Shown: one piece after another, positions 918-38,758 of the stretch
Position numbering within the stretch: the stretch's first letter is position 1
Layout: every line of letters begins with the position of its first letter
Assembly (NCBI GenBank): GCA_017499595.2
Contig: CM039002.1
Span: forward strand, 3,286,001-3,350,000
DNA length: 64,000 nt
Direction of reading: 5' to 3'
From: Psilocybe cubensis
Lineage: Eukaryota
The notes under the pieces: generated by a model
What the model was told of the DNA's origin: nothing
Databases searched by the model: none
Seen by the model: only the letters and a program-made list of their open reading frames with translations
Translations under genes and position numbers: made by a program

Positions 918-1214
918 CTACCCAGGCTCATTGCTCGGGTCAGAACGAATCGGTGGCTCGCTATCCAGGCTCATTGCCGGGATAAGAGCTTCCTATCCAC
1001 TGTCCAGGCTCATTGCTAGGACAAGGATTTTCTACCCCCTATCCAGGCTCATTGCTGGGATAAGGGTGTCGTTCGCCTGCCCAGGCTCATTGCTTGGGCA
1101 AGGATATCCCCCCTATCCAGGCTCATTGCTGGGATAAGGGTATCGTTACTCTGCCCAGGCTCATTGCTTGGGCAAGGATTTTCTACTCCCTATCCAGGCT
1201 CATTGCGTGGATAG
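918..1214 (+). repeat. Array of 8 hairpin-forming units with invariant core CCAGGCTCATTGC (period 36-43 bp)
   Basis: Core starts at 922, 965, 1004, 1043, 1081, 1117, 1155 and 1194. Bases flanking the core differ between units but stay mutually complementary. Confidence 0.9.
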
Positions 1215-1237
1215 TTGTACTTCAGCAGGCCGTAATT

Positions 1238-4200
1238 ATGTCCGACGAAAAAAGACCCTGCTTAGGGTGCCATAAACTCTTCGTACCAGGTCGCTCCTTG
1301 AAGCAGCATACCAACAAATGTAAAAAATATCCTGCTGCAATGAGCAAGGTCCTGAAGGGGTTCCAGGAAAACTTCAGCAGGCAGAATCAGAACAGTAATG
1401 TTGCCAGTGGTTCTTCGCACCAGGCAACCCTTAATAATGAGCCCGGGCCTATGGACGTTGATGTCCATCATGAGTATCTCGATGTGGATATGGTACCACC
1501 TCCAATGCCCCCTGCGCCTCCACCTAAATCACCAACACCACCACCACATCCCCCGACACCACCACCTCCCATTGAACGGCCCAGAGGACTTCCTCCACGC
1601 GTTATTAGATTGCCACAGCGCTTCCAAGACGAGGTCCCACCCGAACCTCCTCTAATTATACCACCAGTCGTGGAGGAGGAACCACCTCAGCCTCAGGAAC
1701 CTCCATCTGTGGAGAGTCTGTATCGAACACCAATGAATGGCTATGGGATATTTCGAGAGTATACCTATGGTCCCCCTTCTATTACTCCTGACGAACATTT
1801 CACACTGTCATCAGTGTCCGATTCTCCAAATATTGCCAAAGACCCAGCCGACTCTTTGAGAAAGGCGTCAGAGGGAACACCAATGGCCCTACCTTCGGAT
1901 TGGTCCTTGGATTCTGAGCCAAAAGACGACAAGAGCTTGCTATTCAAAAATCGTTCTACTCAACTTATCATGTCTTGGTTTTACAACGGCCACGGTACTA
2001 AATCCTACGCTGATACCGACAAATTGATTCACCAAGTCGTACTGGACCCGGATTTTGACCCCAAGGACTTTGATTCCTCCTTTTCTACTGCTCGAGAGGC
2101 AGCGCGTCTGGACGAAATCTCCACCCAAAAAAATTCTACAGATCCTACTTTGTCAGAAGTGTGTCGACCGGAAGCTGGGTGGATCAAGGGCAGCTTTTCA
2201 ATACCAGTGCCATGCGACGGTTTCATATTCGATTCGGAAGAGGAGGCTCCTCAATTTGTTGTTGAAAACGTCATGTATCGAAAACCTCTAGAAGTTATCA
2301 AACAGGCCTTTGCAGAATGCACCTCTGAGACGTATACGACCATACCGTACAGAGAATTTTGGCGTCCCTCACCCGACGAACCACCCGAACGCTTATTCTC
2401 AGAGTCCTACGTGGCGGACATTTTCAATGAAGAGTATGAAAAGATCAAGTCAGAGCCACGCACAGGTCCCCACAGACACCTGGAGCCCTTTGTCGTTGGT
2501 ATCGGGATTTTTTCAGATTCTACCCACCTGACCAGTTTTGGCGATGCTTCTATATGGCCGATCCTTATGTATATCCTCAACCAGTCAAAATACACCAGAG
2601 GGAAACCTAAAGAATTCGCTGCGCACCATATTGCGTATATCCCTAAAGTAAGTTTGTATTGACTGGCATGTACTATTCATATTAACGTTTGGGTCATAGC
2701 TCACAGACACTTTTCAAGATTGGCATCAGCGACAGTTTGGCAAAGCTGCGACATCTGAAATGCTCACCCATATGAGACGCGAGGTCAATACAGGCGTCTG
2801 GGGGCTATTACTTGATGAGGATGTCAAACGAGCGTATGCTGAAGGAGAGGCCGTAGAACTGGCCGACAGAGTATGTCGAGCTATGTATCTCCGTTTTATT
2901 TTTAGTTCAAATGACTACCCCGAAAAGTAAGTCAACATTTACTCGTTATTTCGTTTGATAACTAATGTACAAGCAGAATGCTGCAGTCCTGCTGCAAGTG
3001 TCGCGGCACTTGCTTGTGTCCACGTTGTTTAATTCAAACTATGAATGTCCCAAAGGTTGGATCAAAGATGGATATGCGAAACCGGCTCAAGCTAGCTCGC
3101 GTTGACAGCGAAACTCGTCAATTTGACATCGAAACTGCCCGTAAAGCATTGTTCTTGGGGAAAAAGGTTAACAGCAAGGCGGTTAATGGCTTGCTGCAAC
3201 AGACCTCTGCTTTTCCAACTCGGGTATATTTTTATTTCCTCATATCTACGTATTTTGTCTAAGAATATTACATAGAACGCTTTTTCCAAGGCTTTATTTG
3301 AATATGGCTTCAACTTTTATCGGATGTTTACTGTCGACTTCATGAACGAAGTGGAACTGGGTGTCTGGAAGGCCCTATTTAGTCACCTACTCCGGATTCT
3401 TTATACCTCTAGCAACCAGAACGCCATTGCAACTCTGAACGAAAGGTATTGTCGTGATATCTCGATTCTTACTCAAACTAACTATAGATTTAGATACCGC
3501 CAAGTCTCCCCTTTCGGCCTCACAACTATCCGACGTTTTGCTAGGAATGCTTCAGATATGAAGAAACTGGCAGCACGGGATTTTGAAGATCTCCTTCAGG
3601 TAGGCCTCAATTGCGTGTGATGTTTGATTTTAATTATTAATGATTCCATAATAGTGCTCTATACCAGTCTTTGAGGGCTTGTTGCCAGAACCTGCACACA
3701 ATAAAATTATTCAAAACCTCTTGTTTGAAATGGCGACATGGCACGCCCTAGCCAAGCTTCGACTTCACACCGATACCACTCTGGACGAGTTGGGGAATTC
3801 GTGTACTCGGTTATGTGATCTCCTTCGTCAGTTCCAAAAGGAGGTTTGTAGTCAGTACGCCACTCGCGAGCTTCCATCAGAAACAGCCGCGAGAGGAAGA
3901 AGACAGGCAGCCAAGGCCAAAAAGGCAGCGAGTGCGGGTCTGCCAGTACCTCCGACTCAACCCAATGAACCCAAGACCCGCACGTTCAATATGCAAACGT
4001 ACAAATTGCATTCCCTTCCCGATTACGTCGATTCCATTCGCCAATTTGGCACCACTGACGGCACGAGCACTCAAATGGGCGAAAGCGAGCACAAGAGAGC
4101 GAAACTCTTCTACAAACGGGTCAAGAAAGGTGATCATATTCGAGGTATCGCCAAACACATCTACCGAGAACGTGTGGTACACCGCACTAACCGTGTCGAG

Positions 4201-5748: not shown

Positions 5749-5835
5749 ATACCGCCCTTATATTTCAGCGATAAGGACAGCACCGAGCATCGCCCCCAAC
5801 CCAGTTCCGCAGCCTATTTCGACCTGGACGTGCCT

Positions 5836-6290
5836 GGCGCGCGCCACGCGTGTGCTGCGTATGCGTGCGCCACGCTTTTGAGGCGTATGCGTGCGCCACG
5901 CGTGTGCTGCGTATGCGCGCGCCACGCGTTTGATGCGCGCCACGCGTTTGATGCGTATGCGCGCGCCGCGCGTTTGATGCGCGCGCCACGCGTTTGATGC
6001 GCGCGCCACGTGTTTGATGCGCGCGCCACGTGTTTGATGCGCGCACCACGCGTTTGATGCGCGCGCCACGCGTGTGATGCGTATTGCGCGCGCCACGCGT
6101 GTGATGCGTATTGCGCGCGCCACGCGTGTGATGCGTATGCGCGCGCCACGCGTGTGATGCGTATGCGCGCGCCATGCGTGTGTTGCGTATGCGCGCGCCA
6201 CGCGTGTGTTGCGTATGCGCGCGCCACGCGTGTGTTGCGTATGCGCGCGCCACGCGTGTGTTGCGTATGCGCGCGCCACGCGTGTGTGTG
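5836..6290. repeat. CpG-rich, largely alternating purine-pyrimidine minisatellite (18-25 bp units built on GCGCGCCACGCGT)
   Basis: About 20 variants of GCGCGCGCCACGCGTGTGTTGCGTAT / GCGCGCGCCACGCGTTTGAT. Confidence 0.92.
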
Positions 6291-6426
6291 TTCGTCCAGA
6301 TACAAAGAGGCGTCGATACGGGGAGGGAGGGGTATACATGGATGTGTTTTGAAAAATAAAACTTGATTTCATTGTACACGCGTCACGGTAAACTCAGAGT
6401 GCCTGTCGAACGGGCCCTTTATTCCA

Positions 6427-10490: not shown

Positions 10491-13400
10491 TTACCATTCA
10501 TGTGTATCTATATCAGTTGAACTTATTATTCTGCCGTTTTTGATAGTGATTAACTTAGTGATTATGGCAATATGGACAATACAAGAGGGATGTTCATGGC
10601 ATATCAGCACAGATGTGCTCGGAGAAACAACAGACATATGCAGAAAAAAATCTGCAGGTGAGAAATTTTCTGTCCACCTACTCAATTGCGTTGAGGAATC
10701 CGCACAGGCATCACAGTCAATGAGAGTGATTACGGGTAACTTGAGCATCTTTGGGACCGAGGAACGAGGAAGCTGGTCGATACTGCGACATATAACCTTG
10801 TTCAATTCTCCGCTGCAGACGCCCTGAAGCTGGACAAAAAGCAAACTGGTGTCGGTACAGCAAGGGGCACCACCAATGTTGTTATGTTTGGCTTCTGCGT
10901 CGTAGGCTAGAATCATACGGGCATAGCGGCAAAGTATCATTTCATGGAACTTTTCTGTCGCCATGATATTTTGTGCATCCTTGTTTTTGTCCGTCTCAAT
11001 CATGTAGTGGATGGACTTCGTGCGATGACATAGCCACTCTAGAATAGCCAAGGCTTCGCCACGGGCAAAGATGCACGCCTTGCGCTCTTCGTCGCTCAGG
11101 CTGTTGGTATCCCACCGCATCCATGCGTCTAACTGTGCCAAAGTCTTGGTGGAGAACATCTGATCGGGATTTCGATAGGTCTCGTAGTCGAGCGCATTTG
11201 CCAAGATCATGTACACGCACAGAGCTATCAAGCTCGAGTATCCGGACTGCGTACTGTAGAATGGGACATGGTACATTTCATAAAAATCTGAGAGAAAATA
11301 GAAGAAAAGAATCAGATATCTTGTAGGAAACGGTAAAAAACCTCATACCTTCTGGGTCGCTGTCACCTTCAACCAAAACCTTGTAGAACCAATGTATGGT
11401 TTGCTGCAGGAAAAATCGGGACGTTGAATGATTTGTATTCGTTGCCCTGTATCCAGCGGTAAAACAGTGAATGATTCCTGTCAGGGTTTCTTCAAAGGAA
11501 GTGGAGGAGTAAAAATGTCCGCCACGGCAAACCACTGAGGAGATAGAATACGCCATATGTAGAGTATTCGGTCTCATGAAGCTGTTTTTCAAAGTAGCGT
11601 CAATATAATCAAATGGGTAGGACATTCAAAAATCACATACAGTTCTGACTGGTTATCGAGAACAATCGCCTCGTAAATCCAGTCTTGGTGGTGCGTTTCC
11701 CCGTAATCCAGCTTGTCTCCCAGAAATACACGGCGGTCAGAAGAAAGGTCAACATCCAACCGTCTGGGATACATGATAATCCACAGCTTTAGTCCATGAA
11801 GAGGTTGGATGAAGGAACAGAAACCATTGGCATCGATATGGATATCTGAAAATGCCCCCTCTGTAGCTACGAGTCCCCACGACATATCACCAAATGGGAC
11901 GGGGGTACTATACTTCCAGCTACCAGATGTAGCCCGAAGAGCAGCCGCCTCAGTACTCAAGTCAAAAGAGTGAGCGCCTGCATGAGGTAAAGGGATGTCG
12001 AGGGCATTGAGGATCTTTCCTCTTTTGCCTTTCATCCTTGCTGCTTCCATGACCTGAGAGAGGGACCCACGCTTAATCCTCTCGATGGAGTTAGACGACA
12101 TGGTCGACATATCTGTTACGGCCATTAGCATGAGACGCAGAAAGAAAAATCAAAACATCGAAGAGGAAACACACCTTGGATTGACCTGGTGCTCGTCATA
12201 TCACCCATATGGCGACGTACCTGGCTGTAGAACTCGTCGGAGCAAGTTGAAATAGACTCCTCTTGAGAAGGAGACATAAGGACGACGTTCCTTTCAGAGA
12301 AAGACTCCATCAGATACATGGATTTCGTGGTGCTGCGGTCGAATACCGCAAAACATGATTCTTCGGGACGTGCTATGTGCAATGGAACTCCATCGACGTA
12401 GTCACTCTCGACCAATTCCAGAACCCTTTCAACACGATCCACGTCGGCTTGACTCTTGTTTGGAGAATAAATAAATGACGAAAAAATCAATATCGAGAAT
12501 GACTTACATGGGCAACAACGCAGAAACTTTTAAGTTGGCCACGACCGTTGTAGATGGACCAAACTTTGGTGCCATACACCTTCTCCGGAGTGCTGACGAC
12601 ATCAAGGGTGGTGTTGCTGTCGTACAGATCGACATCAATACACAGGTCGTCGTCCAAATCAAATGTGTCGGTAGCCTGCGTCGGCTTGCGTTTGGGAGGC
12701 CGCTTGGAAAGGCCCTGCCGGCCCTTCCCTTTCCCTTTCTGAGAGGAGTCAGCCGTGGTGTTTTTGCTCCTGTTTATCTGGGAAACAGGAGGAATCCTCA
12801 AAATAAGAGGAGCAGGAGGTGCGTTCTCCCCCTCCTTTTCGCCTTGGCTGTCTTCCAATGTATTCCTCTCCATGTCTGAGGAATCATTGTTTTGCTCTGG
12901 GCCTACCCCCTCTCCATCGACCGACATTCTGTCCTCCTGGACTGGTGGAACATCCCCTTGCCCCTGCTTCTCGGTCTCATTGTCCGACGAACTGTCGTCT
13001 GGCCTTTCCTCCTCACCATCTTCTGACATTCGGTTCTCCTCGTCGGGTCGTTCTCCGTCTTGCCCCTGCTTTTCGCCCTCGTGAACTTCCGACATACGAT
13101 TTGCCTCGTCAGAAGACCCTTCAGCTCCTTGTCCAGCCCCGCCGTCTCCCAAATTTTCTGGACCATTGGTATGTGGACCATCCTCCATTTGATGGTCGAC
13201 ATCAGCTTGCTCCGGATCGACGTTCATCTCACAATCCCCTGCAGTTGAGGGCCCAGTATTCTCAGTCTGAAGTAGACCAGATCCAATATCATCACTCCGC
13301 GGCAAACCAGGTTGCTTGTCCGTGGGCACATCCTTGCCAGCCACCGAAGATGTGTCTTCCGGAGGCTGTATATCTGAGGTAGGGACCGTATTGTCCCCGT

Positions 13401-15110
13401 TCTCCTGTTGACCCATGCTGACATCCTTGCCAGCCACTGAAGACGTGTCTTCCGGAGGCTGTATATTTGAGGTAGGGACCGTATTGTCCCCGTTCTCCCG
13501 TTGACCCATGCTGACCATTTCCGTCGTGTCCACTTCGTGATCATCGTCACCCTCCGCGTCTGCGTCGGACCCTTCACAGGTGGTTTTTTCACCATGATGG
13601 GAAACGGTCTGAAGTTGAGCTGTTTTAAACGGATTTAAATCATGTAATTGACGCAGACTTTGCTTATAACTTACCGTGTGGTTCAGTGCTGTGCCTTGCT
13701 AGGTTAGAATTTGCTGTAACCTCGGCGCTGCTCGTTGACGCTGGCCAATTATTAGTTTAAATTGTTATTTTGTTACAGTACGTAGAACACACATATGAAA
13801 AAGTGAAACGCGGGATCTTGTGCAATTACCCGCTCGCATTCCATCCAGCAGTCTGAGATAACAAGTTTATATAAGGCTGACTGGATGTCGCAATTTTGCG
13901 CTGCAATGATTTTCCAAATTTCCATCTCCACTTCACGCAGAACACGGGGGCGACAATTACCGAGCGCTTTTGAGGCCTAAAGGAGTGCGTTAATCCAAGT
14001 TAAACTGGGAGGATGTGGATACACCTACTTTAAGCAGCTGCTCCCGGTCACATTTCTTAGAATACCAAGATTTATTCACAAAAAGAAGGATGGGGGATAT
14101 GAAAAGGGCGACATGCAGAGGAATTTTTAAATGAGATGGCGTGACCTCTGAGAGGAACAACGCAGCATCAGGATGGCCGCTTGCACTAGGGTATGTTGAG
14201 CAGATTGTATCAATGAATAGAGGAAAGAAAACTTACTAGAGATTTGCAAGAGTAGCCGTGTCCGTTGGAATGTCTGGTAGAATGTGTTCATTGTCCTTCA
14301 TACCGCGCATTCCTGACAAGATTTGGTAGTGTAGCGAGGCGCAGTACACATTCCCGATTATTTTCCCCACAACACCCTTGAAGTGGTTACGCGCCAGACA
14401 GAGTAATAGCGTTGATTCCGAGGGCCCGCCCTGGGTGAAAGCGGATGACGGCGTGTCACTGATAGAAGGGGTGTTGATGTTTCTGTGCGACTTAGAGTCG
14501 GCTCTGAGGATGCGCTTCCTGGCAGAGCAGAGCATTGCCGGCCAGTCCTTCAAGTCATCTACAAGCTACAATAATTGTTTGAAAATTAAGAATTAACATT
14601 GAGTGACTTCATGATCGCATACCTTGAACCGTGAAAATATTTCCTTAGTTCCTGTGCTGGCCTGTATTTCATTCAGGGGCACGGTCACCGGCAACGATGG
14701 TCCAAAGGCTGCTGGCCACAACGCTACGAGATCGAGTAGACGGTATGCTGCAAATAAGCTACCCGCCTGCTCCCATGTAGCCGAGGTTACGCAGGGTGTC
14801 TCTACGATGTTGTTCTGAAGGGCAGCCAAGCTTTGCCTATACTTGATGGCCGCTCGCATGCTCGATGATGAAACATCGTAATTCAAAAAGGTGAAGTCCT
14901 CATATCGTCGGAGGAAATCCACCATCCTCTACAGAAACTTGATATTAGTACCATAAATGGCAATCCAATTAAGACCTACGCGGAGTGGGTGCGACTCTGG
15001 CAACATGTTTTCCAGAGTCTGACGAACGACCTGCGTTTCGAAGAGAAACACCAGAATTTCTTCAGCTTGGAGTCGGGCAACGGGGGAAATCTTCTGGGCT
15101 TGCACTACAA
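10491..15110 (-). CDS. JmjC-like Fe(II)/2-oxoglutarate dioxygenase domain protein, multi-exon, with long acidic low-complexity region (start approximate)
   Basis: SWGLVATEGAFSDIHIDANGFCSFIQPLHGLKLWII (H-x-D at 11840-11832, K of GxKxW), then EAIVLDNQSEL|FMRPNTLHMAYSISSVVCRGGHFY (distal His). Upstream exons are linked by GT-AG introns. Confidence 0.75.
13331..13514 (-). repeat. 90-bp coding tandem duplication in the JmjC-like gene
   Basis: VSMGQ(R/Q)ENGDNTVPTS(N/D)IQPPEDTSSVAGKD occurs twice. Confidence 0.85.
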
Positions 15111-15295
15111 AACTTCAACGTCTCACCCTGCATTCTATTTCTTTGGGTACTTACTTTTTTTTGTGTGTTTTTTTCTGGTGTCTCAAATTTTCAACTAGAT
15201 GAATTTTAACTGAACGAAAACTATTATAGAGTGTCTAGAGTATTGTCTATGTCTATTTTATTAGAATGTATGTTAAATCTATGGGGAGGGGTACT

Positions 15296-15541
15296 ACGCT
15301 ATGACGAACGGAAAGAAAAACAATCAAGTTGGAAACACGCTATTTCCGGAGCGATTCTTTAGGGTAGGTTTCCCGTCCTGAAGTCACGAGTTGGTTAAAA
15401 AAACGCCCGTGATGCGGCTGATGTAAGGGGGCGTTTTTTTAACCAACTCGTGACTTCAGGACGGGAAACCTACCCTAAAGAATCGCTCCGGAAATAGCGT
15501 GTTTCTCACCATATGTTTTCTCTTTCCGTTCATCATAGCGT
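15296..15541. repeat. Long palindrome between divergent genes
   Basis: Perfect 77-bp arms 15332-15408 and 15429-15505 around a 20-bp spacer. Imperfect outer arms extend to 15296 and 15541. Confidence 0.95.
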
Positions 15542-15746
15542 CTTATCATAGTAATAGGTTGTGTAGTATCTAAAAATAAATTATCACAAGTTAAGATGAT
15601 AAATTAAGTGAGATGAACATCGATTAACAGTCTTTAAGACCCACAATGTCTAGTTATAAACGCAGATGACTTGACAGCCTAGGCAACCGCACAGTGTGTA
15701 CTAATCCAACCCTCCATCTAATCACTAACTTCAGGGAAATTTAATT

Positions 15747-18005
15747 ATGATCTCAAAAAATCAGGACATTAATCCCTTCATAGACATTGAAGCAGCGGTT
15801 TCCGATGATGATGAAAGTTCGGAAGAGCTTGATTATGAAGGGGGCCAACTACGTATGTTCCAATAATTTACATATATTCTGCTCAATATGTACTGATGCT
15901 AATGGGTTCTGACATACAGTGAATGATAACGATGAATACTCTGAGGATGAGGAACGTGTTGCACACTCTCGGCTATATCATGCCATGCAAAATACAGATA
16001 ACGCTGATGAATGGAGCGATTTGTTGCCCATGCTTCTGCCTTCACGCATGAAAATTCGTCCTGACAATGATATAGAGCCATCTAGTTCACGAGAACTTAT
16101 ACAGAAATATGGCAATCCCCAACCAGGAGGACTTGGTGATAATAATTATATGCCTTCCGCGACTGATATCATGTATGAAATAGGTTGCAAGGTACGCAAA
16201 AATAATATAAGTCTTCAGTCAGCATTTATTGATCACCTTACGAGTGATAGGTTGGACGCGAAGAGGCCGTCGCTTTCAAAATTATGCAGATGTCAACGAA
16301 CCCTACATTTTCCATCATCCTTGCCCGGTCTGTCTTCGCTCAATCCTCAATTCCTGGGAGAATCTACGTCGAGGCGCCATCAATGCAACATGCGCATACG
16401 TTAGCCTGCCTCGTTAGAGAGCTTAATCCGACACATTTAGTTAGGCTATCCTCGGAGAGATGTATGGAGATCCTATCTCATCCCCCACCCTCACGCCCTG
16501 AAGACCAATCGTGGGTCAAGGTTGCTGGAAAGCGTAAGGCTTGGACGACCTACGCAAATGCTACCGGCCTTGTGTTCACATTCCAGGGTCGGAAAAGTGT
16601 TGTTCTTATCCCCAGACCTCCGGACAACATCAAGAAATCGCACCTCGACAGGATATTCCAGGATGGATTTATTATCACGGATTTCGACGCCATCGATCTC
16701 AAATATCTTTCCAATGTCCTCCCAACATCGTCCGAGTTGGAGCAATTTCGCGAGTGTCCATTTGTAACGACGGAGACCTTAGCGCAAGCCTCGAAAGCCA
16801 TCTCCATGACTCGACTGAAACGATATGATCGAGTCAAAATTATTGGTGGAGAATACTTAGGTCTTTTTGGAACGGTCAAGAGTGTTTCTGACGCTGAGGT
16901 GGAAGTGCACATCCCCTCCCAAGGTATAACACAAGCAGTTGCACTACACGATCTACGTGCAGCTTTCCAGATAGGCGATAGTATTGAAGTCGTTGAAGGG
17001 GATCACAAAGATCTCCATGGATGGGTGTCAGACTTTGATGGAAGATCTGTTTGTATTATCGCCCCAGAGCACGAACGCGAAGTAGGTGAACTGTCATTCT
17101 CTTTGTCTTAGTAGTGTTCAACACATTTTTCAGGTCATTGTGCCCATCCACACAGTCATATTCTACGTCCCCCCTGCTCATGCTACTCTTCGCCCGCGAA
17201 AGCGTCATTCGTCAAAGCTTGGAGAAAGAGACCACAACGACGTCTATATAGGTTTGAGTGTCATCGTTGTCGGGAATAATACATTCAAGGGGTACTATGG
17301 CATCGTTAAAAGCACTACCCCCGACGGCTTTGCAGACGTTGAGCTGGAAGCTCGTAACCAGAGGGTGGAACGTATTAAAATATCACATTTAATTATACAG
17401 TATGTGGTTTCACTTGATTCGTTGACTGTCAGGTGCTTACTGACATTGTTTCAAGCAACCGAGAACATATAAATTCCGCTCAAGACCCCGGGCCTTCTGG
17501 TGGAGCAACTCCAATGCCGTCCACAGTAGCAAGTTTTCTGTCTCCTGCATGGAATCCGTATTCAGCAATACCTGTACACTCGGCGGTGGAAATCGCAGAA
17601 CTACCCTCAACCGTCGCTCACTGGCTAGATACGAAATACGATAAGCTGAAAGGATTACGATTAAAAGTCTTAGACAAATCCAAGGGCGACCATCAAGTGG
17701 CGATGGAACTTCTCAGCCTTACCGACAATACTGCCCACCTAGCATTACTGGGACGTACACTGACATTACCGAAATCAGTGTTGTTTCCAATTCATCCTGT
17801 AAAAAAGGACGACTTCGTTACACCGCTTGAGGGCGATTCAATGGGGATTATATTCAGGATACGATCAATAGACAAGGATATTTGCGTTGTACATAAATAT
17901 CCCGTTACTCGTATGAAACGCGGTGATACATTCCCAACTTTTCCGACAACATCTTTGATTCAAATCTTCCCCCCGTCCCGTGGTGTCAAAGTTGTAAATA
18001 TGTAG
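15747..18005 (+). CDS. Divergent Spt5-like protein (acidic N-terminus, NGN domain, several KOW motifs), multi-exon
   Basis: NPFIDIEAAVSDDDE; YEIGCK|VGREEAVAFKIM...SVFAQSSIPGRIYVEA (NGN). KOW-like DRVKIIGGEYLGLFGTV, FQIGDSIEVVEGDHKDLHGWV and IGLSVIVVGNNTFKGYYGIVKS. Short CTR-like GGATPMP..SPAWNP. Confidence 0.82.
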
Positions 18006-18172
18006 GGTGCAGCATTACTTGTATCTCGAACACGGACTTGTAGACATATACGGGTTTTATGTCATTCTATTTAAGTATATTTCGGCAATCAACAGTGCTA
18101 ATGGTTCGTAATGTGTTGATTGTCTTGAACTTAAGCCACCACCACCACACCAAATTGTTGCCCATCTTTATC

Positions 18173-18527
18173 ATGAACCATTCCAATAGCAACAACGCTT
18201 CGCAACCTCAAAGTCGCCGCCTCCCTAGCATACCCGAAGAGGCAGAGTTCTTTGTTTTAGGTCTATTTTCATGTTTTAATCCACCTTCCTCTAGAATCAA
18301 GGCATAGAGGCCGTTAAAAAGGCTCTTGACCAATTTCAACTCACTGAACAGAGGTGTCTAGAAGTTCAGGCAGAGCTACGTTGTTATATGGACGACATTA
18401 TGCGAGCATATAAATCCAATGAAGATCTTCTGTTTGAAACCCAGCTCGAAATCGCCCGTCTACGGGTATCCCTCATTAGTCGGGGAATACCTATTCTAAT
18501 GCACCCTCAGGATAATCCGCGATCATG
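18173..18527 (+). CDS. Small coiled-coil hypothetical protein (2 exons, possible GC-AG intron)
   Basis: MNHSNSNN...PSIPEE joined to NQGIEAVKKALDQFQ...QLEIARLRVSLISRGIP*. Confidence 0.45.
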
Positions 18528-18799
18528 ATAGGTGCAGTCTTTTCCCCTCTGAGATGTAACTTTACTTAACTCTAAGTAGGACATGGAATCTGACTATAAT
18601 GTATATGTGATATATTGTAGTAGATAGGGGTACTGTTTCAGTACCTGTAATTTCTATATGGCACGATATATTTTTGACTGATGTCCGTCGCCTTAAATTT
18701 TGAAAAGAGGCTAATTTCGCATACCTCCGGATCGTAGCTTGACATAATTCACCACCCCTTGTCTCTATTTCTGCATTACAACCGTCAAACCAGCCCAAT

Positions 18800-21506
18800 A
18801 TGCCACCTAAAGGATCCAAAAAGAAAAAGGCAGTTGTCAATGCCACGGTTGAAGGTATCATCTATATATCCTCATTACATCCGCATACTTAATGTTTTAT
18901 CCATCTAGGACAAGAGGTTGAACAGGGTCCGAGCTCCGTGGCAGAAAACGAGCCACCTCAGGCTCCAGAAGCAGGTCTGTACTAGCATTTTCTTTGTTGA
19001 GATTCACTGAACTCCTTATTAAAAAGACCCCAATGGCCGTCCTATCCGAAGCACCCGTGGTCTTGGTGGAGTAAATGCTCGGCAGGAGAAAACATCTAAC
19101 ATCATTTTTATTGACTTTGAGAAGGCTGGGAAGAGGAAGTCAAGGGCCGCCAATGTGGATACTAGTGCCATGCCTGAAAATGAGATGGCGCCTCCCTTGA
19201 AGAAACCTTGCAATGGGGTGAGTCTACTGTTCTAATCTTAAATTTGCTATCTTCCAAGCACGTCTAGGTTACCGTTGTGTTGCATGTAGGTCCCCCTATT
19301 CAAATGCAACCAAGGCCAACGCCTTCAGTTGCTCCTTGGGATGTCCAACAAGTCCAACCAAGCCCACGACAATCTCAGGGTGCCCCCCCTCCTGTCCAGA
19401 TCCAACGTGCAGCTCAGAGAAATCAGGAGCACTCAGAGCTTGATCATGCTGTCCAAAGACCCACTGCCCCCATCCAGCGCCCCGCTGCTCCGGTACAACA
19501 GCCAGCACATCCTGTCCCGCGCCCCGTACAACATGCAGCACATCCTGTCCCGCGCCCTGTACAACACGCAGCAAATCCTGTTCAGCGTTACGCTGCCGCT
19601 GCGGCAGAGAATTCTGTCCAATACTACAATGCCCCCGTACAACAACCAGTGCATCCTGTAACACAACATGCCCCCGTACAACAGCCAGTGCATCCAGCAG
19701 CCTATAACGCCCACCAAGAGGCTAGCATCAGCCATCAAGACGAGGAGGAGCAACAAGATTACGAAGGCATAGAGCAGGAGGAAGATGAGGAGGAGGAAGA
19801 GGGGGATAGTGACGGTGAAAGGCAATCTGAGGAAGCATCAGGGGACAAATGCATGCAAGGAATTGATGAAGAGAATATTGGGGATGAAGAAGCTCTCCAA
19901 TATGTCGACGGTGAAGCCTGCTGCCCAGCGTTGGTTTAACTCCACCTTTATGTTGTGTTTGCTTACCACCTATGTTTGACAGTGGTTGATGAAGTTTCCG
20001 ATGATGAAGAGGAGAGGAGAGCAAGGGCATTGCTCCGCCAGCCTTCCCCCCATGTAATCATTTCTCTGCTGTATTTAATGTCTAGCTAATGTATTATTGA
20101 TATAGGTTGTGGAAGTAGAGGATGTTCTTCAAGAACACCGTCGTCGTAATCGGGCGAACAAGCCATCTCGCCCTGAGGCATTGCGCAAGGCGGCTGTTTC
20201 GCAAGGAGCCGTATCCCAAGGTTTGACAAGGGAGAACAACGAAGCATCTGACGATGATGAGGTGCTTGGTGAGGCACACATCGCTCATAAGAAGTCCAGT
20301 ACTTCTTCTGCTAGGGAAGTATCCAAGCATTCAGTTGCATCCTTTACTGGTTACTGGAAAGATGTGCTCAAAATTGCACGCAAACTGATGTGCCTGTATG
20401 TAGTAGAGGAGGTCCCCTTTCCCACTCGGGAAAATCACTTATTAGTCGCCGATGGATGTGTGAAGATGGCAGTAACCGTGTTTGAAAGAATGAACACGGA
20501 TAAAGTGTTGCCTGATAGTAAGTTCTGTCTTCTGTGATTTTAGTTAATTGGTTTACATAACTTTGCAGAGAAAAAAACGCTCCTAGACAGGAATACCGCC
20601 GTAACGGTATATTTTTAGCGTGTTCTTTTAAGGATATCGTACTAACGTGTCTGTTCTCATTAGGCATTTGTCTACGCGTCAACCTTCCGGGGAAGACTGA
20701 AGACGATGATCAGACCCCTGGTCAAAAATGCGTATGGCCTCGAAGTCCCGTCGGAGGTCATCGCCGCGAACCCCAATATGTTTGAAAATCAGATGGGGGA
20801 GATCGAATACATCAAGGACAGGGTAGCATATTGGCTACTCAATGGTAAATACCACCGGGGTGTTGCCAAAACCCGAGTGAGTTCGCCGTCCATTTTACCT
20901 GGCTTACCACTCATTGATTTGTTTCCAGTATCACAATGTCCCATTTGGACATCCTTTTGTGAAGAAGATCTGTCTGGACTTCTTCTACCATCCTACAAAA
21001 GGGGTTGCAGTCCCCATCAAAGGTCTGGAGACAAAGACGGATTTCTTCAAGACATCGCTTCCCCACAAAGCATTTGCGCTTGTGGCCAGTTGTGTAGTTC
21101 TGATTTCTCTCCTGCTATTGGCACTGCCTTGCTAACAAGCATTTTGCTGTAGATCCACAACTGTCTTGAGGAGTGGAGGGATGGGATTGACCCTGCAAGA
21201 GGTGGTCCGTGTTCGGGTATTGAATTTAAGGGAGAGGAGTACTCCCTGAGGTATGATGCCTGCATGTTGGTTGCAGCAGAGGCAGAGAAGGATACCTTGA
21301 ACCAAGGTCCTCGCTTGGCTCGCTTATGTAGGGAAGTGGCTGAGGAAGGATGGTGTGTATCTTTTTTTATTCATTTCTTTCTTTGCATCATTTAGATCTC
21401 CATAATCAGTGCTATTATGAGGCCTACGAAGAACCCCCCCAACCCTTATAGGATGACTCTCCATTCTATCCCACAGGAGGAACTAGATTACGGTCCAGAA
21501 GGGTAG
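18800..21506 (+). CDS. DUF6532-like domain protein with Pro/Gln- and Glu-rich N-terminus, multi-exon
   Basis: MPPKGSKKKK start. C-terminal VEEVPFP...STFRGRLK..IRPLVKNAYGL...PFGHPFVKKI...LPHKAFALVASC|IHNCLEEWRDG...EFKGEEYSLRY pattern. Confidence 0.7.
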
Positions 21507-21774
21507 TTGGGTGAATGAGCGGGGCAGCTGCCGGGTGTGGATTAGAAGATACCATATTTAGATCGTCACATATTAATAGTTATGCATCTACTAATAGAAA
21601 CATGTTTGGTCCGATCCAAACATAGATTATCTATTTTTAAAATTGCCCATTTTAGTCAAAAATGGTTCGGTTTTCAGTGTGATATTGGCACTTGCAGGAA
21701 TAGCCACACAACACTATACAAATGAAAGTGGATACTATATATGCCTTTGTACCTATTTGCAGTGTGTTATGATG

Positions 21775-21866
21775 TGCTACAAATCTGTGGTAGCATGCTA
21801 CAAATCTGTGGTAGCATGCTACAAATCTGTGGTAGCATGCTACAAATCTGTGGTAGTATGCTACAA
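21775..21866. repeat. 21-bp tandem repeat of self-complementary units (x4)
   Basis: TGCTAC-AAATCTGTG-GTAGCA repeated; scattered (G/CA)CTAC motifs continue to ~22120. Confidence 0.9.
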
Positions 21867-22121
21867 TTTGTATGTCAGTTGTATACAGAGGGGTATGGAC
21901 CATGGTAAGCATGCTACACGCCGCTACACAGCACTCGCGTTACAATACAGATCACTACAGAGTACCATGTCACGTTGGTACCAAGCTACAGGTACATCAG
22001 TGTGTGTTACCCAAATGGGACCGTTACTATGGGCACTACAGAATTATGTATCACTACGGATCATTACCTACTTGGCCCCGGTATTGCTGATGTACAAGTT
22101 CCGGTTGATCAAGCACACAGG

Positions 22122-23083
22122 GTAAGTTTTTTTTTTCGTTTCAACTAGTCCCCAGTCTCGAATACGCCTTCGATCTTACAGCGAATCTACTCCGATTGTC
22201 GATGCGAGTAACCATGTCATTGGGGTAATTGCAAACCACCCTAACGACCCCTACTGGCAAGATCTTCAGCGCCAGGCCTCTGCTGCCATTGAGGCTCGAC
22301 GCGATCGGTGTTGCATCCCAATCGAGGACGAAACTCATCGTCAAGGAGCCTTCATTTCTCTCAATTGTGGCGTATCACACGGAGGTGGTCGAAAAATGCC
22401 GGGCAACGTTAAGAATTCCAAGCCAAACGCCGAAGTCCTGGCCGAGTTAAACGCAATGGAACCGTTCCAGAGATTCTCCAGTTTCGCATCATGTAAGTTT
22501 CTCCTCATTTTGGACAACTGCGCGCACTGAAAACGTATTGGCAGCTGTCATGTATACGTGGGCAAACCAGCTCTATCAGTACTATGCCACAACGCTTTCA
22601 AAACTACATTCCAAACACCCCAAGCTCCGTCGCATCTTCCCTGACAGCATCTTTAGTGCTGTGTCGTATAATTTTGGCCCATGGACAACCTGCTTCCAGC
22701 ACAAGGATTTCGCAAACCTTGCGTTTGGCTGGTGCGCCGTAACCGCCCTGGGAGACTTCGACTACACAGCAGGAGGCCATTTGATATTATGGGAGCTTAA
22801 GATTGTCATCGAGTTCCCACCTGGGTGCACCATTTTATTCCCCTCAGCCCTGATTACACATTCCAACGTGCCCATCAAGGAAACAGAACGTCGCTATTCA
22901 TTTGCGCAGTACACAGCGGGCGGAATCTTTCGATGGGTAGAGAATAACTTCATGACGCGTGAGCGTTATTTGGCGAAGCTGACTTGAGAGCAACATGCGC
23001 AAGACGAGGAAGCTAACGCAACACGATGGAAGTTGGGATTGTCTCTGTTATCTACGTCAAATAATGCCAAAACCACTGCATAG
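22122..23083 (+). pseudogene. TET/JBP-family dioxygenase lacking its 5' exon(s), with a premature TGA near the C-terminus
   Basis: STPIVDA..VIGVIANHP..HRQGAF..LNCGVSHGGG; TCFQHKDFANLAFGWCAVTALGDFD..GGHLILWELK..IEFPPG.TIL.PSALITHSN..ERRYSFAQYTAGGIFRWV (HxD...H...R). TGA at 22985-22987 is followed by an in-frame RWKLGLSLLS tail. Confidence 0.88.
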
Positions 23084-23680
23084 TTACATTCATTAGATAC
23101 TTCCTGATATAGCAGATGTGAATCAAATCAGTCCAAGATAAAAATTAAAGGAATGAGATGAGAATTGCTGGAGTAGTGTAAAAGCAGGCTAACGTATGGT
23201 GATCTCGGGTGATGTTTATGGTGATCTCGGTTTGATGGTTTTTGCCTCGTATAATGCTTAATTGTGACTCTAACGCTATGAATACAGTGTCTAAAGACAG
23301 AGAATCTTTGGGAGAATTGATTTGTCAAAAAATTAGAGCATTAGTGTAGTTACAAAAATGGTGATATTTCGAACACTGCACACAATCCACGTATGTACGT
23401 ACGTCCTCATAATGCACTTTGGATACACCAAAAAATTTTTTTTTTCAGAAACGTCTTCAAACGTATTTTAGATTATTTATGGTATTTTTCAATTCTCTGA
23501 AAGCCGCACGCAATGTTGTGCAAAAGAATTTTCTTTGTGTGAACTACACTTGACCTGCCTCGGTTCATACCTTTTTAGGTAAGTATTTGTTCTAGCCTTG
23601 CCGTTCAAGCCTTGCCTGACTTCAAAACATTGTGATCGCCTCTTTATCAAACACCGTTATACTCTGCCCTACGTGTATTA

Positions 23681-24256
23681 ATGGCACGCCAACGCGCTTC
23701 AAAAGCAATCAAAACTGTAAACCGTGAGATGTATCTCAGACGGAGACATGCTTACTATGAGGCGTACGTAGGTCTCTGTCAACGCAATCAACCTACGCAA
23801 ACTTAACTACACGCAAACTTAACTTTCTTAGCAACTGCAAACGCGAGCAACGGAAATCGCAAGAGCGTTATCAACGGTACGTCCAACGTGCGCATACTAT
23901 GTTACAACCTAACCTCATTCATGACCATCAGTCGCAAGAGTCTGCCTGACAACGAGCTTGCTTTGAGCAGACAGAAGCATCGTGAGGCCCAGGCTAGATA
24001 TCGTGAACGAAACCGTTTCACGTTGAAGGTTAAGGCCAAAATTTACTACAGGTATGTTTTATTTTATTGTCAAAGTCATTAGTATACAAACTATCTACGT
24101 AGGAAAAAACAAAACCCTCCAAACGAAGAAGAGGAGGACCCGGATGAGGAGGAAGAATGGATACGCCTGAGCGCGCTGGCTCATGGCATTACTGAGGAGG
24201 AATGGATCAGTTTGCATGGACGCAACTCTTACCGAGGTGGTTCGCCTGTTCACTGA
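23681..24256 (+). CDS. Small basic helical protein (Arg-rich, bZIP-basic-like) with acidic tail, 4 exons
   Basis: MARQRASK...; KHREAQARYRERNRFTLKVKAK; GT-AG introns link the exons. Confidence 0.55.
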
Positions 24257-31600: not shown

Positions 31601-32228
31601 TGAAGTGAGTTATGGTTGTGTGTGTGCGAAGCTTGCAGACTCCGTCTGCAATGTCCAAGGTTGTAGATAATGTCTGAATGGTGTAGCAAGATGCAAGTTG
31701 GAGTTTTAATTGAGAGAAAATCGAAACAGATCGATCCTTGCCGAGTGCGATTCACTCCGAGACAAGGTGGACGAAATGTGAGGGAAAAAAAAAAATAGCT
31801 CTGTATTCCACTAAAGTCTCGTCTCCCACTACCTAAGTTAATATATAGTAATTTGTTATCTTCGCCAAGCTGTTACTGCTGCGTGCTGAGCCAGACACCA
31901 CCTCCTCCGTGACACTCGTTTCCCTGTTCGTTGCGCCTGTGGGCGCTTTGACAGGGGCTCATCAATGCTTGGCGGTCGTGGTTATTTCCTTATTCGACCC
32001 CCCTTGGCGAGTGTGGCGCACGCACTCGTATGCTGTAGTTTGAAAAGACTTATCTTGCATTTTGTCCCTTATCTTCCCCTGTGTGTGATAAGGTCATCGG
32101 TGCAGCGCTCCTGTATCACGTCGGAAGTCGCATCCGTCGGCACAGCTATGGGCTTTTGCTCTGTCTCGTGACGCCAGGCTTTTGCTATCGCGCGCGCTTT
32201 TGATCGCAGACGGTAGTGGGTTCCCACA
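31601..32228 (-). repeat. Gypsy 3' LTR
   Basis: Matches 38759-39386; I found one mismatch (31945 G vs 39103 A). PPT GGGGAGG on the minus strand at 32229-32235. Confidence 0.97.
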
Positions 32229-32271
32229 CCTCCCCGGTACTATAAATGTTGACCTCTGTGTCAACCTGGAA

Positions 32272-32944
32272 ATGCCCATCCAAACACTCAATTCGGACTT
32301 CAGCACCACTTTCATCATGCTTAGAGTTTTCACCGAAAACAGTATCCACCGAATCAACCTCTTTGCTACCGAACACTGGCACCGAGACACGAGCTTTACG
32401 GTTGCCGCCGGCATGCGCGTCATTACGGAGGGCAGCCATGGACCGCGAGGCGACTTCTTTAATTTTATCCACTTTCTTGATGCCGTGGTAAGCCTAACCA
32501 TTCTGCAAATGTTTCCACGTATATTAACCTATGGTGTGACAGCGCGGCATGGCGAGCAGCCGCCACGCGATGCGGGAGCTTGACTTGATAGTCAGTGTCT
32601 TTGACCGTGACCTCGTCACGTTCCAGAGTGCATTGGAACGAGGATCTGCGGACCGTGTTCCCCAGTGTGCTCAACGCGATGCCATTGCAGCAGTCTACAC
32701 CATTATGAACGGGGAGCAACGCGAGCGGTTTGATATAACCTCGTGGTATATTGAGCAGATCGAGAAGGCTATTTATGGGGAGGACGATTCCATTTACGTT
32801 TCCTCTGACAGTGGAACCGATGACATGCCACTTTTGGAAGGCGAGAACGAGGCCAGGGATGAAGGCGAGCCGGAACAGGATGTCACAGAGGTGATTCCAG
32901 ACAGTGGTTTGCAGTGGGGCATTAGGAGCGGGCGCCGGGTGTAA
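32272..32944 (+). CDS. Antisense spliced ORF (205 aa) inside the gypsy element
   Basis: TATAAAT at 32241. Exon 32272-32487, intron 32488-32542 (GTAAGC...TTAAC...ACAG), exon 32543-32944 in frame. Confidence 0.65.
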
Positions 32945-33073
32945 TAAATAGTTATTTGTTGCTTGTTTTTTGTTTATTTGACAGTTTTTTAATCGGTCGA
33001 TTCTAAGTGACAGTCCTTGAGAGAAAAGAAATTTTTATAGATTAGTAGGGTTGGCTGCAAGGTTGGGACGGTG

Positions 33074-36000: not shown

Positions 36001-36440
36001 AATACTCGTCACTAAACTTTCCTTTCTCGGATTCATCCCATGCGAACGCGGTTTCGTGTAACAGTATTATGTGGTGCACCAATTTCTCTTCCTCTGGCCA
36101 GAGGAATCCGTCTGGGTTAACTTTCATGGCTTCTTTTCTTTGTAGTGTGTATCGTTGTCCTGGTGTAAATTCGGGCGGTCTGGTCGGAAGAGCAGGCAGA
36201 TCTGCAAGCGGGTCTGACGGAATGCGTCGTACGATGCGAAACTTTTCGGGTAGCGTTGTTGCGACGGGTTTAATTCGATTGGCGACTTTTTTATATGCGA
36301 GCGATGCGTTTTGATTTCGGTTATCAGACGTGTAATAGCGAGAAAAGGAATTGGATTGAGAAATAGAAACATTTGACGTATTTATGATGTGAAGACTCTG
36401 GTCTCCTCGATTTATATTCGATTCATCGACCCCTAAAAAT
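33074..36440 (-). CDS. pol: Gypsy pol (RT, RNase H, integrase), probably reached by -1 frameshift
   Basis: LRIVHDLQPLN, FDLFVGFDQ, PMGYTNS, PFVDDIP; LAVDSS, ELYGL; HHCC finger (AHDDLGH...CHEC); integrase core DTML/TDNA/VERRH. The frame is open upstream of Met 36127 to the slippery site. Confidence 0.93.
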
Positions 36441-38499: not shown

Positions 38500-38739
38500 C
38501 TTGGTTGCAATTCCCCAATTTACTGGAACAAATGTGGGTCGGGTCGGGGACGACTGTGCAGAGGCGTTCGATGAATCCGATGACGAATCGGTTTCAGATA
38601 AAGGCTGGCGGTAGTGAAAATAATGGGGAAAATATGTAGGTGTTGGACGCGTTTCCGTGGCGTCTTGGGTGTTCTCGAGTCCCTCCTTGTTTGGGGCACT
38701 CGAGAATCAAGGATAGGGTGGTTTACAACCTTTAGAACC

Positions 38740-38757: not shown

Positions 38758-38758
38758 T

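Follow-up and report, generated by a model that had tools for sequence, protein, structure and literature searches.

A spliced Spt5-like gene occupies positions 15646-18005 on the + strand of the window, the whole analysed stretch of 64,000 nucleotides from Psilocybe cubensis contig CM039002.1. Read from ATG 15747, the splice model comprises five exons and 674 codons with zero internal stops, and its four introns of 67, 59, 52 and 56 nt are all bordered by GT..AG. The first-pass annotation had described about 650 codons over 15747-18005; the coding region is split by introns. ATG 15747 lies within an intron of the relatives' gene model. The start common to the relatives is ATG 15646, in a CACAATG context, which opens an extra exon (15646-15693) followed by an intron (15694-15764). 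The gene consists of the following parts.

15646..15693, + strand: conserved first exon, MSSYKRR*LDSLGNRT (tblastn of residues 1-16 of the relatives P0152 and P0001, codon analysis and family N-termini)
15694..15764, + strand: intron of the relatives' model, GTGTGT..TCAG, containing ATG 15747 in frame with exon 15646-15693
15765..15852, + strand: exon 1, DINPFIDIEA and an acidic stretch, the start of Spt5_N (Pfam Spt5_N below cut-off; the canonical-invariant F, D and A are kept)
15920..16191, + strand: exon 2, acidic/linker region and first NGN strand, IMYEIGCK (splice model; the NGN match of P0001 begins here)
16251..17081, + strand: exon 3, remaining NGN (about 16254-16436), degenerate KOW1 (about 16503-16616) and linker, KOW2 (about 16827-16922) and KOW3 (about 16974-17075) (Pfam, PDB alignment and mapping to Galerina Spt5)
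17134..17399, + strand: exon 4, linker and KOW5-type domain at about 17281-17367 (KOW5_SPT5 match; family HMM against Galerina)
17456..18005, + strand: exon 5, one CTR-like repeat GGATPMPSTVASFLSPAWNP (about 17502-17558), KOW6-7-like tandem (about 17616-18002) and TAG stop

The first exon encodes a basic KR cluster ahead of FxDxEA, and this cluster is conserved across the family. In the window copy, codon 8 of this exon (15667-15669) is TGA, at which the P. cubensis relatives have Arg. ATG 15747 is in frame, has an A at -3 and lies 78 nt past this TGA. Given the stop at codon 8, the window copy has probably been recently disabled or N-terminally shortened.

Domain architecture

Pfam, profile and structure matches bore out the Spt5 domain order of the first-pass annotation, with every feature present on the + strand. 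The order is an acidic N-terminus with FIDIEA, NGN, KOW1, KOW2-3, KOW5, one CTR-like repeat and a KOW6-7-like tandem. FIDIEA (15777-15794) sits inside a weak Pfam Spt5_N match of 17.3 bits against a cut-off of 24.2. The Spt5-NGN match reaches 24.4 bits on exon 3 alone (cut-off 22.4), and the NGN of the 98%-identical relative P0001, first strand included, scores 31.5 bits in Pfam; the family profile also matches the NGN crystal chains 3h7h_B and 2exu_A. The KOW motifs of exon 3 score 29-47.5 bits in Pfam (KOW 29.0, KOW2_Spt5 47.5, KOW5_SPT5 29.3), and this exon aligns with the linker-KOW2-KOW3 part of yeast Spt5 in the PDB alignment. Exon 4 matches KOW5_SPT5 at 28.7 bits (cut-off 27). The protein contains a single TP..SPAW unit, and the same HMM segment matches canonical CTRs two to three times per protein; no Pfam CTD match was found in the Spt5-like protein. 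Its 674 residues hold one GW and zero WG.

Structure prediction covered the C-terminal 182 residues, the last 120 of which are predicted to form a tandem beta-barrel with pLDDT > 90. The best solved match of this model is KOW6-KOW7 of human DSIF (5ohq; E 5.8e-6, TM 0.75 on the target). Chance resemblance to Spt5 is excluded, because the family profile matches solved Spt5 chains at E 4e-84. The same profile matches the plant KTF1/RDM3 chain 8hyj_W at E 2e-41.

Comparison with canonical fungal Spt5 (Galerina marginata P0243, 1140 aa; yeast/Komagataella 5xon, 6ir9 and 8jch) revealed that the family protein, hereafter Spt5L, is collinear with it. Both comprise an acidic Spt5_N with FxDxEA, NGN, KOW1, KOW2, KOW3, KOW5, TP..SPAW and a C-terminal tandem KOW. 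The family HMM runs along residues 81-536, 705-828 and 960-1095 of Galerina Spt5, its positions 457-583 corresponding to 705-828, a stretch that includes KOW5. It skips residues 537-704, which hold KOWx and KOW4, and most of 830-960. Thus KOWx-KOW4 and nearly the whole CTR array are missing from Spt5L, which has about 60% of the canonical length and a CTR array cut down to one repeat. At canonical positions conserved in at least 90% of sequences, the family keeps the residue at a mean of 0.43-0.69 in NGN, KOW1, KOW2, KOW3 and KOW5, whereas the mean for KOWx and KOW4 is 0.06. Roughly half of the residues that are invariant in canonical Spt5 differ in Spt5L, and several of those in NGN and KOW1 are replaced family-wide.

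The family and its separation from canonical Spt5

The family search returned 350 representatives at E<=1e-3. Among the 150 best representatives of 50%-identity clusters, 138 are family-type, that is, the family HMM outscores the canonical fungal Spt5 HMM on them by at least 20 bits (19 of the 138 were HMM training rows). All 23 named family proteins come from Agaricales, in 16 species, several of which have two to four distinct copies. Species differ widely in how many Spt5L copies and which lineages of the family they have, and short contigs hold many of the copies.

Phylogenetic analysis placed 30 family rows on one side of a branch and 17 canonical rows on the other, with an SH-aLRT of 98. 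The canonical rows follow the species tree, and the family branches are much longer. Constraining the family together with Agaricomycete canonical Spt5 gave a p-AU of 0.022, for a group named after the tree had been seen and with long branches. A canonical Spt5 of about 1100 residues with the full Pfam set is present in 4 of the 16 family-bearing species, among 120 rows listed that do not include the P. cubensis SPT5. It is present also in close relatives, for example Galerina and Flammula. The phylogeny called for in the first-pass annotation thus sets the family apart, and this separate branch, together with the four species in which a family member co-exists with a full canonical Spt5, agrees with its view of the gene as a paralogue and not the essential SPT5. 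On sequence evidence, Spt5L is a large, fast-evolving, multi-copy family of Spt5 paralogues, seen so far in gilled mushrooms (Agaricales) only. No account of a multi-copy or transposon-linked Spt5 paralogue in fungi turned up in our literature search.

Public records label family proteins 'Transcription elongation factor SPT5' or 'Chromatin elongation factor SPT5', and metagenome pipelines name the family's large exon 'ribosomal protein L24'. Both labels, 'SPT5' and 'ribosomal protein L24', are misleading for Spt5L.

Copies and genomic neighbourhood

In comparisons made at the protein level, P. cubensis has copies of 97-99% identity on two contigs, 4.19 and 3.62 Mb long, and the window copy is distinct from each of them. 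Psilocybe cf. subviscida likewise has two copies in one 90%-identity cluster, on two contigs. Seven of the ten inferred single-base differences between copies are CpG transitions, R8* included. The relative P0001 stops after D329, where a CGA codon comes next in the window, and annotation splits the P0001 locus into two genes. In P0152, exon 4 is left out of the gene model. Neutral evolution as decaying fragments, named in the first-pass annotation as the opposing outcome, describes the recent copies in part, given the nonsense codon of the window copy and the relative's model ending before CGA, but not the family, which keeps intact proteins of about 650-730 residues in many species at identities down to 21-36%. 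The gene is not CpG-depleted, because its CpG o/e is 0.97, and CpG depletion as a sign of an old methylated repeat was accordingly rejected for it. No second copy of the gene was found within the window.

Plavaka, KDZ+CxC2, gypsy and copia-fragment sequences occur in the window, as does DUF6589. The features that bear on the surroundings of the gene are listed below.

922..2659, + strand: transposase ORF of Plavaka type with 8 direct copies of CCAGGCTCATTGC ahead of it; no transposase lies nearer to the Spt5-like gene, which follows 13 kb downstream in the same orientation
15296..15541, no strand: MITE-like foldback with 113-nt arms, 92% complementary, and a 20-nt loop, between divergently oriented ORFs and 105 nt upstream of ATG 15646
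19268..21392, + strand: ORFs downstream of the Spt5-like gene, P/Q-rich and acidic in their N-terminal part, with a weak match to DUF6532
22126..22984, + strand: TET/JBP-like 2OG-Fe(II) dioxygenase ORFs, HKD..GGH..THSN..RYSF, about 4.1 kb downstream on the same strand

The CpG o/e over 19268-22984 is 0.69. The TET-like ORF matches Pfam Tet_JBP at E 0.012 and 15.3 bits, below cut-off. It obtains Atlas scores of 0.96-0.97 to Basidiomycota 2OG-dioxygenase clusters, and 22 of its 30 Atlas matches fall in one set, 12% of whose members carry Tet_JBP. BLASTP against P0006 and phmmer against the PDB returned nothing for this ORF. P0006, an Agrocybe gene model, is Spt5L fused to Tet_JBP, in the same order as the neighbours in the window. 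Among the 150 best family matches, a Tet_JBP match occurs in only one and a transposase domain in none.

A search of the window around the Spt5-like gene found no TIRs, TSDs, long-range inverted repeats or element ends. The Plavaka subterminal 13-mer has no inverted partner within the window, and the PlavakaB-type terminus motif is at chance level there (36 matches, 29 expected). With P0006, P0020 and P0036 as tblastn queries, the Spt5-like gene was the only match in the window. For the extra parts of the fused models, namely the tails of P0006, P0020 and P0036 and the heads of P0104 and P0010, no counterpart was found among the window ORFs or between the models, and thus no conserved multi-gene unit was seen. 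Pfam revealed no further domains near the gene in 100 of the 123 ORFs of at least 75 residues in 1-31600, a set that leaves out overlapping antisense ORFs inside repeats. Neither tRNAs (whole window) nor Rfam families (13000-24000) were found.

The evidence for the first-pass placement of the gene in mobile DNA is circumstantial. Speaking for it are a window rich in TEs, copies on separate contigs that are nearly identical, a spectrum of differences dominated by CpG transitions and a TET-like neighbour; speaking against it is the lack of termini, TSDs or a linked transposase in the window. As no element termini were found, the case for Spt5L as cargo is circumstantial. Transposon-borne TET/JBP dioxygenases of Agaricomycetes were reportedly described by Iyer et al. 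in 2014. According to the available part of PMC12730594, TET/JBP genes are transposon cargo in Agaricales, on elements > 24 kb; they are, like Spt5L, host-type chromatin or epigenetic genes expanded in basidiomycete TE-rich DNA. Their cargo status is documented there with termini and TSDs, whereas that of Spt5L is putative. The terms 'Spt5' and 'KOW' are absent from the text and supplement of that paper.

Possible roles on RNA polymerase II

To our knowledge, Spt5/NusG is the sole transcription factor conserved in all life. Specialised paralogues of it occur in bacteria (RfaH-type, often in horizontally acquired DNA), plants (KTF1) and ciliates (Spt5m). Plant SPT5L/KTF1 (RDM3), the chain of which is matched by the Spt5L profile, is likewise a paralogue of Spt5 that combines NGN with KOW domains, and it is specialised for transposon transcription units. 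KTF1 has a long WG/GW platform for Argonaute binding and acts together with Pol V, whereas Spt5L has its single GW; fungi, as far as we know, are without Pol V. Moreover, KTF1 is a host gene and not a multi-copy family, unlike Spt5L. In Paramecium, Spt5m is a second Spt5 gene beside the vegetative one, needed for the non-coding transcription that targets germline-limited, largely TE-derived DNA, and as described in PMC5416832 it is one paralogue with a developmental role that, in contrast to Spt5L, shows no sign of having multiplied in TE-rich DNA. The bacterial factors RfaH, ActX, TaA, LoaP and UpxY are NGN-based and compete with housekeeping NusG/Spt5 on RNA polymerase, as outlined in PMC7819879. 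According to the same source, many specialised NusG paralogues have their genes inside long operons of horizontal (xenogeneic) origin or beside their target operons, ActX and other RfaH homologues are plasmid-encoded, and RfaH prevents silencing by termination. These paralogues have a single KOW and are recruited by a DNA element (ops), unlike Spt5L; the likeness would be a functional one only.

We tentatively propose, at a little under an even chance, that Spt5L is multiplying in transposon-rich, CpG-methylated DNA, most likely as cargo of, or hitch-hiking with, large TET/JBP-carrying DNA transposons, and that it replaces host Spt5 on Pol II. NGN and KOW1 of Spt5 form the DNA clamp, and KOWx-KOW4 provide half of the RNA clamp and a stalk contact (PMC9467590). 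Spt5L has retained the parts of Spt5 seated on Pol II, namely NGN, KOW1, KOW2-3 and KOW5, together with one CTR-type docking motif and the KOW6-7 tandem, and has shed KOWx-KOW4 and the phospho-regulated CTR array. The first-pass annotation had suggested a private anti-terminator or a competitor of host Spt5, and this set of kept and missing domains would suit a competitor that binds Pol II. We infer that Spt5L binds Pol II and displaces host Spt5 at repeat or transposon transcription units, and its elongation complexes might then escape the CTR-dependent control of pausing, Paf1C/Rtf1 loading and termination. The direction of the effect could be either anti-silencing for repeats, together with TET, or silencing of repeats. 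A pro-silencing role is equally indicated, because truncation of the Spt5 CTD in S. pombe strengthens RNAi-independent heterochromatin (PMC10659198). Against the proposal stand, besides the missing element ends, the weak TET-like match, the ordinary fungal introns, the lack of CpG depletion in the gene and the family-wide replacement of several canonical-invariant residues in NGN and KOW1. A bolder form of the proposal, which we consider unlikely, is that large mushroom DNA transposons carry their own Pol II elongation factor, the CTR-array-less and KOWx-4-less Spt5L, which with TET would constitute an anti-silencing module, a eukaryotic counterpart of the NusG paralogues of RfaH/ActX type encoded on plasmids and islands. 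In such a module, Spt5L would oust host Spt5 on element transcripts, allowing escape from CTR-dependent termination and heterochromatin nucleation, and the transposon-borne TET would remove 5mC.

A host genome-defence paralogue is a possible, if rather doubtful, alternative to this competitor carried along with transposons. Such a paralogue, kept by the fungus itself, would replace Spt5 on Pol II at transposon transcripts and thereby favour co-transcriptional silencing or heterochromatin, as SPT5L/KTF1 and Paramecium Spt5m might suggest. It would lie in TE-rich compartments because fast-evolving defence genes duplicate there. Specialised Spt5 paralogues do have precedents in TE control (PMC3111484 and PMC5416832, both in part), and the profile match to KTF1/RDM3, the S. 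pombe CTD effect on heterochromatin in view of the one repeat that Spt5L keeps, the ordinary fungal introns, the absence of detectable transposon termini around the gene and the intact members across many species all agree with defence. However, a WG/GW Argonaute hook is missing from the protein, nonsense or truncating changes are present in near-identical copies from different contigs, species differ in copy number and lineages as described above, with many copies on short contigs, and TET-like genes, a TE cargo, adjoin Spt5L twice (in the window and in the P0006 fusion).

The gene could also be a functionless duplicate in decay, a pseudogene that arose when an older paralogue was copied, either in a segmental duplication or through TE-mediated transduplication. 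The TGA at codon 8 of the relatives' start exon, the loss of the family-conserved basic cluster along with that exon, the shortened or divided models of P0001 and P0152 and the predominance of CpG transitions between copies would suit such a fate. We nevertheless regard it as distinctly unlikely, given that 674 codons past codon 8 are free of stops and frameshifts, all splice sites are intact, the in-frame ATG with A at -3 is available beyond the TGA, and the CpG o/e indicates little decay. Furthermore, the architecture is conserved family-wide at 21-36% identity, which shows long-term selection on the family protein. That the locus is simply the organism's ordinary, merely divergent SPT5 is hardly credible. 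The public SPT5 names of its relatives would be in line with this, but the separate branch, the absence of KOWx-KOW4 and the CTR array, the multi-copy state with nonsense variants and the co-existing canonical Spt5, found in four family-bearing species as well as in Galerina and Flammula, rule against it.

A mushroom Spt5L family in TE-rich methylated DNA, twice adjoining TET-like genes, would represent a new arena of conflict over Pol II on repeats, where Spt5L may redirect the polymerase. It also offers a natural 'CTR-less, KOWx-4-less' Spt5 for asking what those modules do. The question lends itself to direct tests in Agaricales that are experimentally tractable, for example Coprinopsis, Cyclocybe or Schizophyllum-type systems.

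The window copy and its gene model

The Spt5-like gene is spliced and spans 15646–18005 on the + strand of the window. The first-pass annotation placed its start codon at 15747.

Exons counted from ATG 15747, with the first exon and intron of its relatives
15646–15693, +, relatives' first exon as found in the window, start context CACAATG
15694–15764, +, intron after this exon, GTGTGT..TCAG
15747–15852, +, exon 1
15920–16191, +, exon 2
16251–17081, +, exon 3
17134–17399, +, exon 4
17456–18005, +, exon 5

From ATG 15747, the coding sequence comprises 2025 nt (674 codons) with no internal stop, and the introns of 67, 59, 52, and 56 nt all follow GT..AG. P. cubensis proteins of 97%–99% identity to the window protein start with MSSYKRRRLDSLGN(R/H)T-DINPF, and in their gene model ATG 15747 is intronic. 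Codon 8 of their first exon encodes Arg, versus TGA in the window copy. Given that a basic cluster immediately ahead of N(P/V)F(I/L/V)D(I/L/V)EA is common to the whole family, this TGA cuts off a conserved N-terminus; beyond it, the remainder of the gene is intact. From its sequence, we thus read the window copy as recently disabled or N-terminally shortened. Public gene models of near-identical P. cubensis copies (P0001, P0151, and P0152) conflict, one locus being split into two genes and another lacking the KOW5 exon. One relative's model ends directly before a CGA codon of the window.

P. cubensis contigs 4.19 and 3.62 Mb long carry copies, each distinguished from the window copy by several residues; the 64-kb window itself holds no second copy. 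P. cf. subviscida has two copies of one 90%-identity cluster on two contigs. Ten single-base differences among copies were inferred, including seven CpG transitions (R8*, R15H, R92C, E177K, S223L, R327Q, and N593D), two other transitions, and one transversion, a spectrum expected from 5mC deamination.

Domain architecture against canonical Spt5

Pfam was scanned exon by exon, with cut-offs of 22.4 bits for Spt5-NGN and 27 bits for KOW5_SPT5. Spt5-NGN scored 24.4 bits, and Spt5_N matched FIDIEA weakly, under its cut-off (17.3 bits). Exon 3 matched KOW (29.0 bits), KOW2_Spt5 (47.5), and KOW5_SPT5 (29.3), and exon 4 matched KOW5_SPT5 (28.7); exons 2 and 5 gave no Pfam match. Exon 3 by itself matched solved Spt5 chains (E 5.8e-10), and the family profile matched those of Spt5 (E 4e-84) and plant KTF1/RDM3 (2e-41). 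Unlike KTF1, the window protein has no Argonaute hook, as it contains a single GW dipeptide. The family HMM (699 positions) is collinear with P0243, the canonical Spt5 of Galerina marginata (1140 aa, Pfam-mapped domains).

Alignment of the family HMM to P0243
HMM 6–426, residues 81–536, Spt5_N, NGN, KOW1, KOW2, and KOW3
HMM 457–583, residues 705–828, KOW5 and start of the CTR
HMM 548–661, residues 960–1095, C-terminal region

Residues 537–704 (KOWx and KOW4) and most of 830–960 (the CTR array) of P0243 are unmatched. Where at least 90% of 113 canonical fungal Spt5 proteins share a residue, that residue is retained in the family at mean rates of 0.43–0.69 in NGN, KOW1, KOW2, KOW3, and KOW5, versus 0.06 in KOWx and KOW4. 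The exon-5 segment TP.P...SPAW.P, conserved in roughly 13 of the 20 full-length members in the alignment, matches the canonical CTR 2–3 times per protein, and thus represents a single surviving CTR repeat. A C-terminal model built on the window sequence itself and an alignment of 25 rows (mean pLDDT 77, >90 over residues 60–170) predicts a helix and two beta-barrels for the last ~120 residues; its best solved matches are KOW6–KOW7 of human DSIF (5ohq, E 5.8e-6, TM 0.75 on target) and KOW2–KOW3 of yeast (4ytl). Together, per-exon Pfam, the HMM alignment, the CTR motif, and this model bear out every element of the compact Spt5 domain order listed in the first-pass annotation.

A family separate from housekeeping Spt5

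In a full HMMER scan, exon 3 matched the representatives of 350 clusters (50% identity) at E<=1e-3, and 88 of these at <=1e-10. Among the best 150 of the 350, 138 are family-type, meaning that the family HMM outscores the canonical fungal Spt5 HMM by 20 bits or more (19 of the 138 had been used as training rows); the others split into seven canonical-type and five ambiguous representatives. Many matches are single-exon metagenome ORFs of 300–350 aa, and metagenome pipelines label the large exon "ribosomal protein L24" in some ORFs (noted for cluster P0002). Among 30 proteins looked up, 23 are named family-type proteins from 16 species, all of which we take to be Agaricales (four checked by taxonomy look-up). 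Distinct members number at least four in Agrocybe chaxingu, and at least three each in Cyclocybe aegerita and Arthromyces matolae. An Atlas look-up gave, as a lead only, many Basidiomycota-dominated clusters of 50–168 members.

A chytrid Spt5 query retrieved canonical proteins of ~1000–1150 aa with the full Pfam set in all 120 listed of 734 matches at E<=1e-30. Among the matches listed, canonical Spt5 and a family member occur together in Tricholoma furcatifolium, Ephemerocybe angulata, Galerina marginata, and Tricholomella constricta. The separate canonical SPT5 supposed by the first-pass annotation was thus found in four other family-bearing species, but P. cubensis is absent from the 120 listed of 734. 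An IQ-TREE quick search (LG+G4; 47 rows, 595 columns) gave a tree in which a single branch with SH-aLRT 98 separates the 30 family rows from the others, and the canonical rows match the species tree. This split and the co-occurrence uphold the reading of a paralogue rather than the essential SPT5. Family branch lengths are 0.28–1.26, versus 0.07–0.17 for canonical Agaricales. In this tree, the neighbours of the family are other long branches; constraining it with Agaricomycete canonical Spt5 was 50 log-likelihood units worse (p-AU 0.022), for a group chosen post hoc and with long-branch attraction possible.

Possible mobile DNA, relatives, and a putative mode of action

Features around the Spt5-like gene
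1064–2659, Plavaka transposase ORF
15296–15541, near-perfect foldback with 113-nt arms and a 20-nt loop, lying between the gene and the divergent ORFs upstream
22126–22984, +, divergent 2OG-Fe(II) dioxygenase ORF with HKD..H..R motifs, ~4.1 kb downstream of the gene
31601–39386, −, complete gypsy-type LTR retrotransposon (Integrase_H2C2, RT_RNaseH, DUF4100 gag-like)
42887–43597, +, weak Tet_JBP ORF, CpG o/e 0.55
49508–51581, +, DUF6589 ORFs
56561–60097, −, KDZ (Kyakuja-Dileera-Zisupton) transposase and CxC2 cysteine cluster

The window also holds a copia RT fragment. The gypsy element is a very young insertion, since a single base separates its 628-bp LTRs and a 4-bp ACAG duplication is present. 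The KDZ transposase appears to form another, older TET-bearing element with the upstream Tet_JBP and DUF6589 ORFs. The foldback looks like a MITE and has no further copy in the window. Eight direct copies of CCAGGCTCATTGC (922–1206, ~39-nt spacing) at the Plavaka ORF start are reminiscent of the subterminal repeats that transposase binds in CACTA-type elements; no set in inverted orientation is present in the 64 kb. Adjoining the gene, multi-exon ORFs at 10494–15100 (−) have no Pfam match, and one encodes 403 acidic, low-complexity residues with a 93-nt duplication. Nested long inverted repeats at 51776–53552 (arms of 80–176 nt, 96%–99% complementary), directly past the DUF6589 ORFs, represent either one foldback-type structure or a pair of elements inserted in head-to-head orientation. 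Four tandem-repeat arrays (5811–6317, 41913–42272, 54642–55181, and 61695–62017; periods 20/26, 45, 180, and 42 nt) occur, several inside long ORFs without Pfam match, such as 61138–63168 (676 aa). The window contains no tRNA, and no Rfam family was found near the gene.

Passages of PMC12730594 document TET/JBP genes as transposon cargo in Agaricales, with PlavakaB consensuses >24 kb. The dioxygenase ORF (Tet_JBP E 0.012, under the Pfam threshold; Atlas 0.96–0.97 to basidiomycete 2OG-dioxygenase clusters) may be a "PE-type" TET as described there. In Agrocybe, the P0006 gene model joins a family member with a Tet_JBP match (29.3 bits, under cut-off) in the same order as in the window. The proposed location in mobile DNA is consistent with the TE-rich window, the copies on different contigs, the CpG spectrum, and the TET-like neighbour. 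However, no enclosing termini, TSDs, or long inverted repeats were found around the gene, the best 150 family-search matches include no transposase domain and one Tet_JBP, and the extra segments of fused gene models match neither the window nor one another; the CpG o/e of 0.97 for the gene also counts against it. Weighing these, carriage of the gene by a large DNA transposon is plausible.

In the literature searched, we found no fungal Spt5 paralogue described as multi-copy or linked to transposons, and neither "Spt5" nor "KOW" occurs in the text or supplement of PMC12730594. As passages of PMC7819879 describe, bacterial NusG paralogues can be anti-silencers, RfaH being the studied case, and many are encoded in or beside xenogeneic (horizontally acquired) operons or on plasmids. 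By analogy, these would suggest an anti-silencing direction; in contrast, shortening the Spt5 CTD in S. pombe strengthens heterochromatin (PMC10659198), and KTF1 and Spt5m have roles in TE silencing and elimination (PMC3111484 and PMC5416832).

Passages of PMC9467590 describe NGN as a DNA clamp that binds RPB1, RPB2, and upstream DNA and is stabilised by KOW1 and SPT4, and the CTR as recruiting PAF1C, its dephosphorylation slowing Pol II for termination. With the NGN/KOW1 set kept, the Spt5-like protein would take the Spt5 site on Pol II; because KOWx-4 and the CTR array are lost, such complexes would evade CTR-based control. We rate the family, whose proteins already carry generic or misleading names in public databases, as a specialised Spt5/NusG paralogue; its reading as mobile cargo is the bold, unproven case. 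The simplest inference from sequence is that the Spt5-like protein may occupy the Spt5 site on Pol II, freeing these complexes from CTR control.
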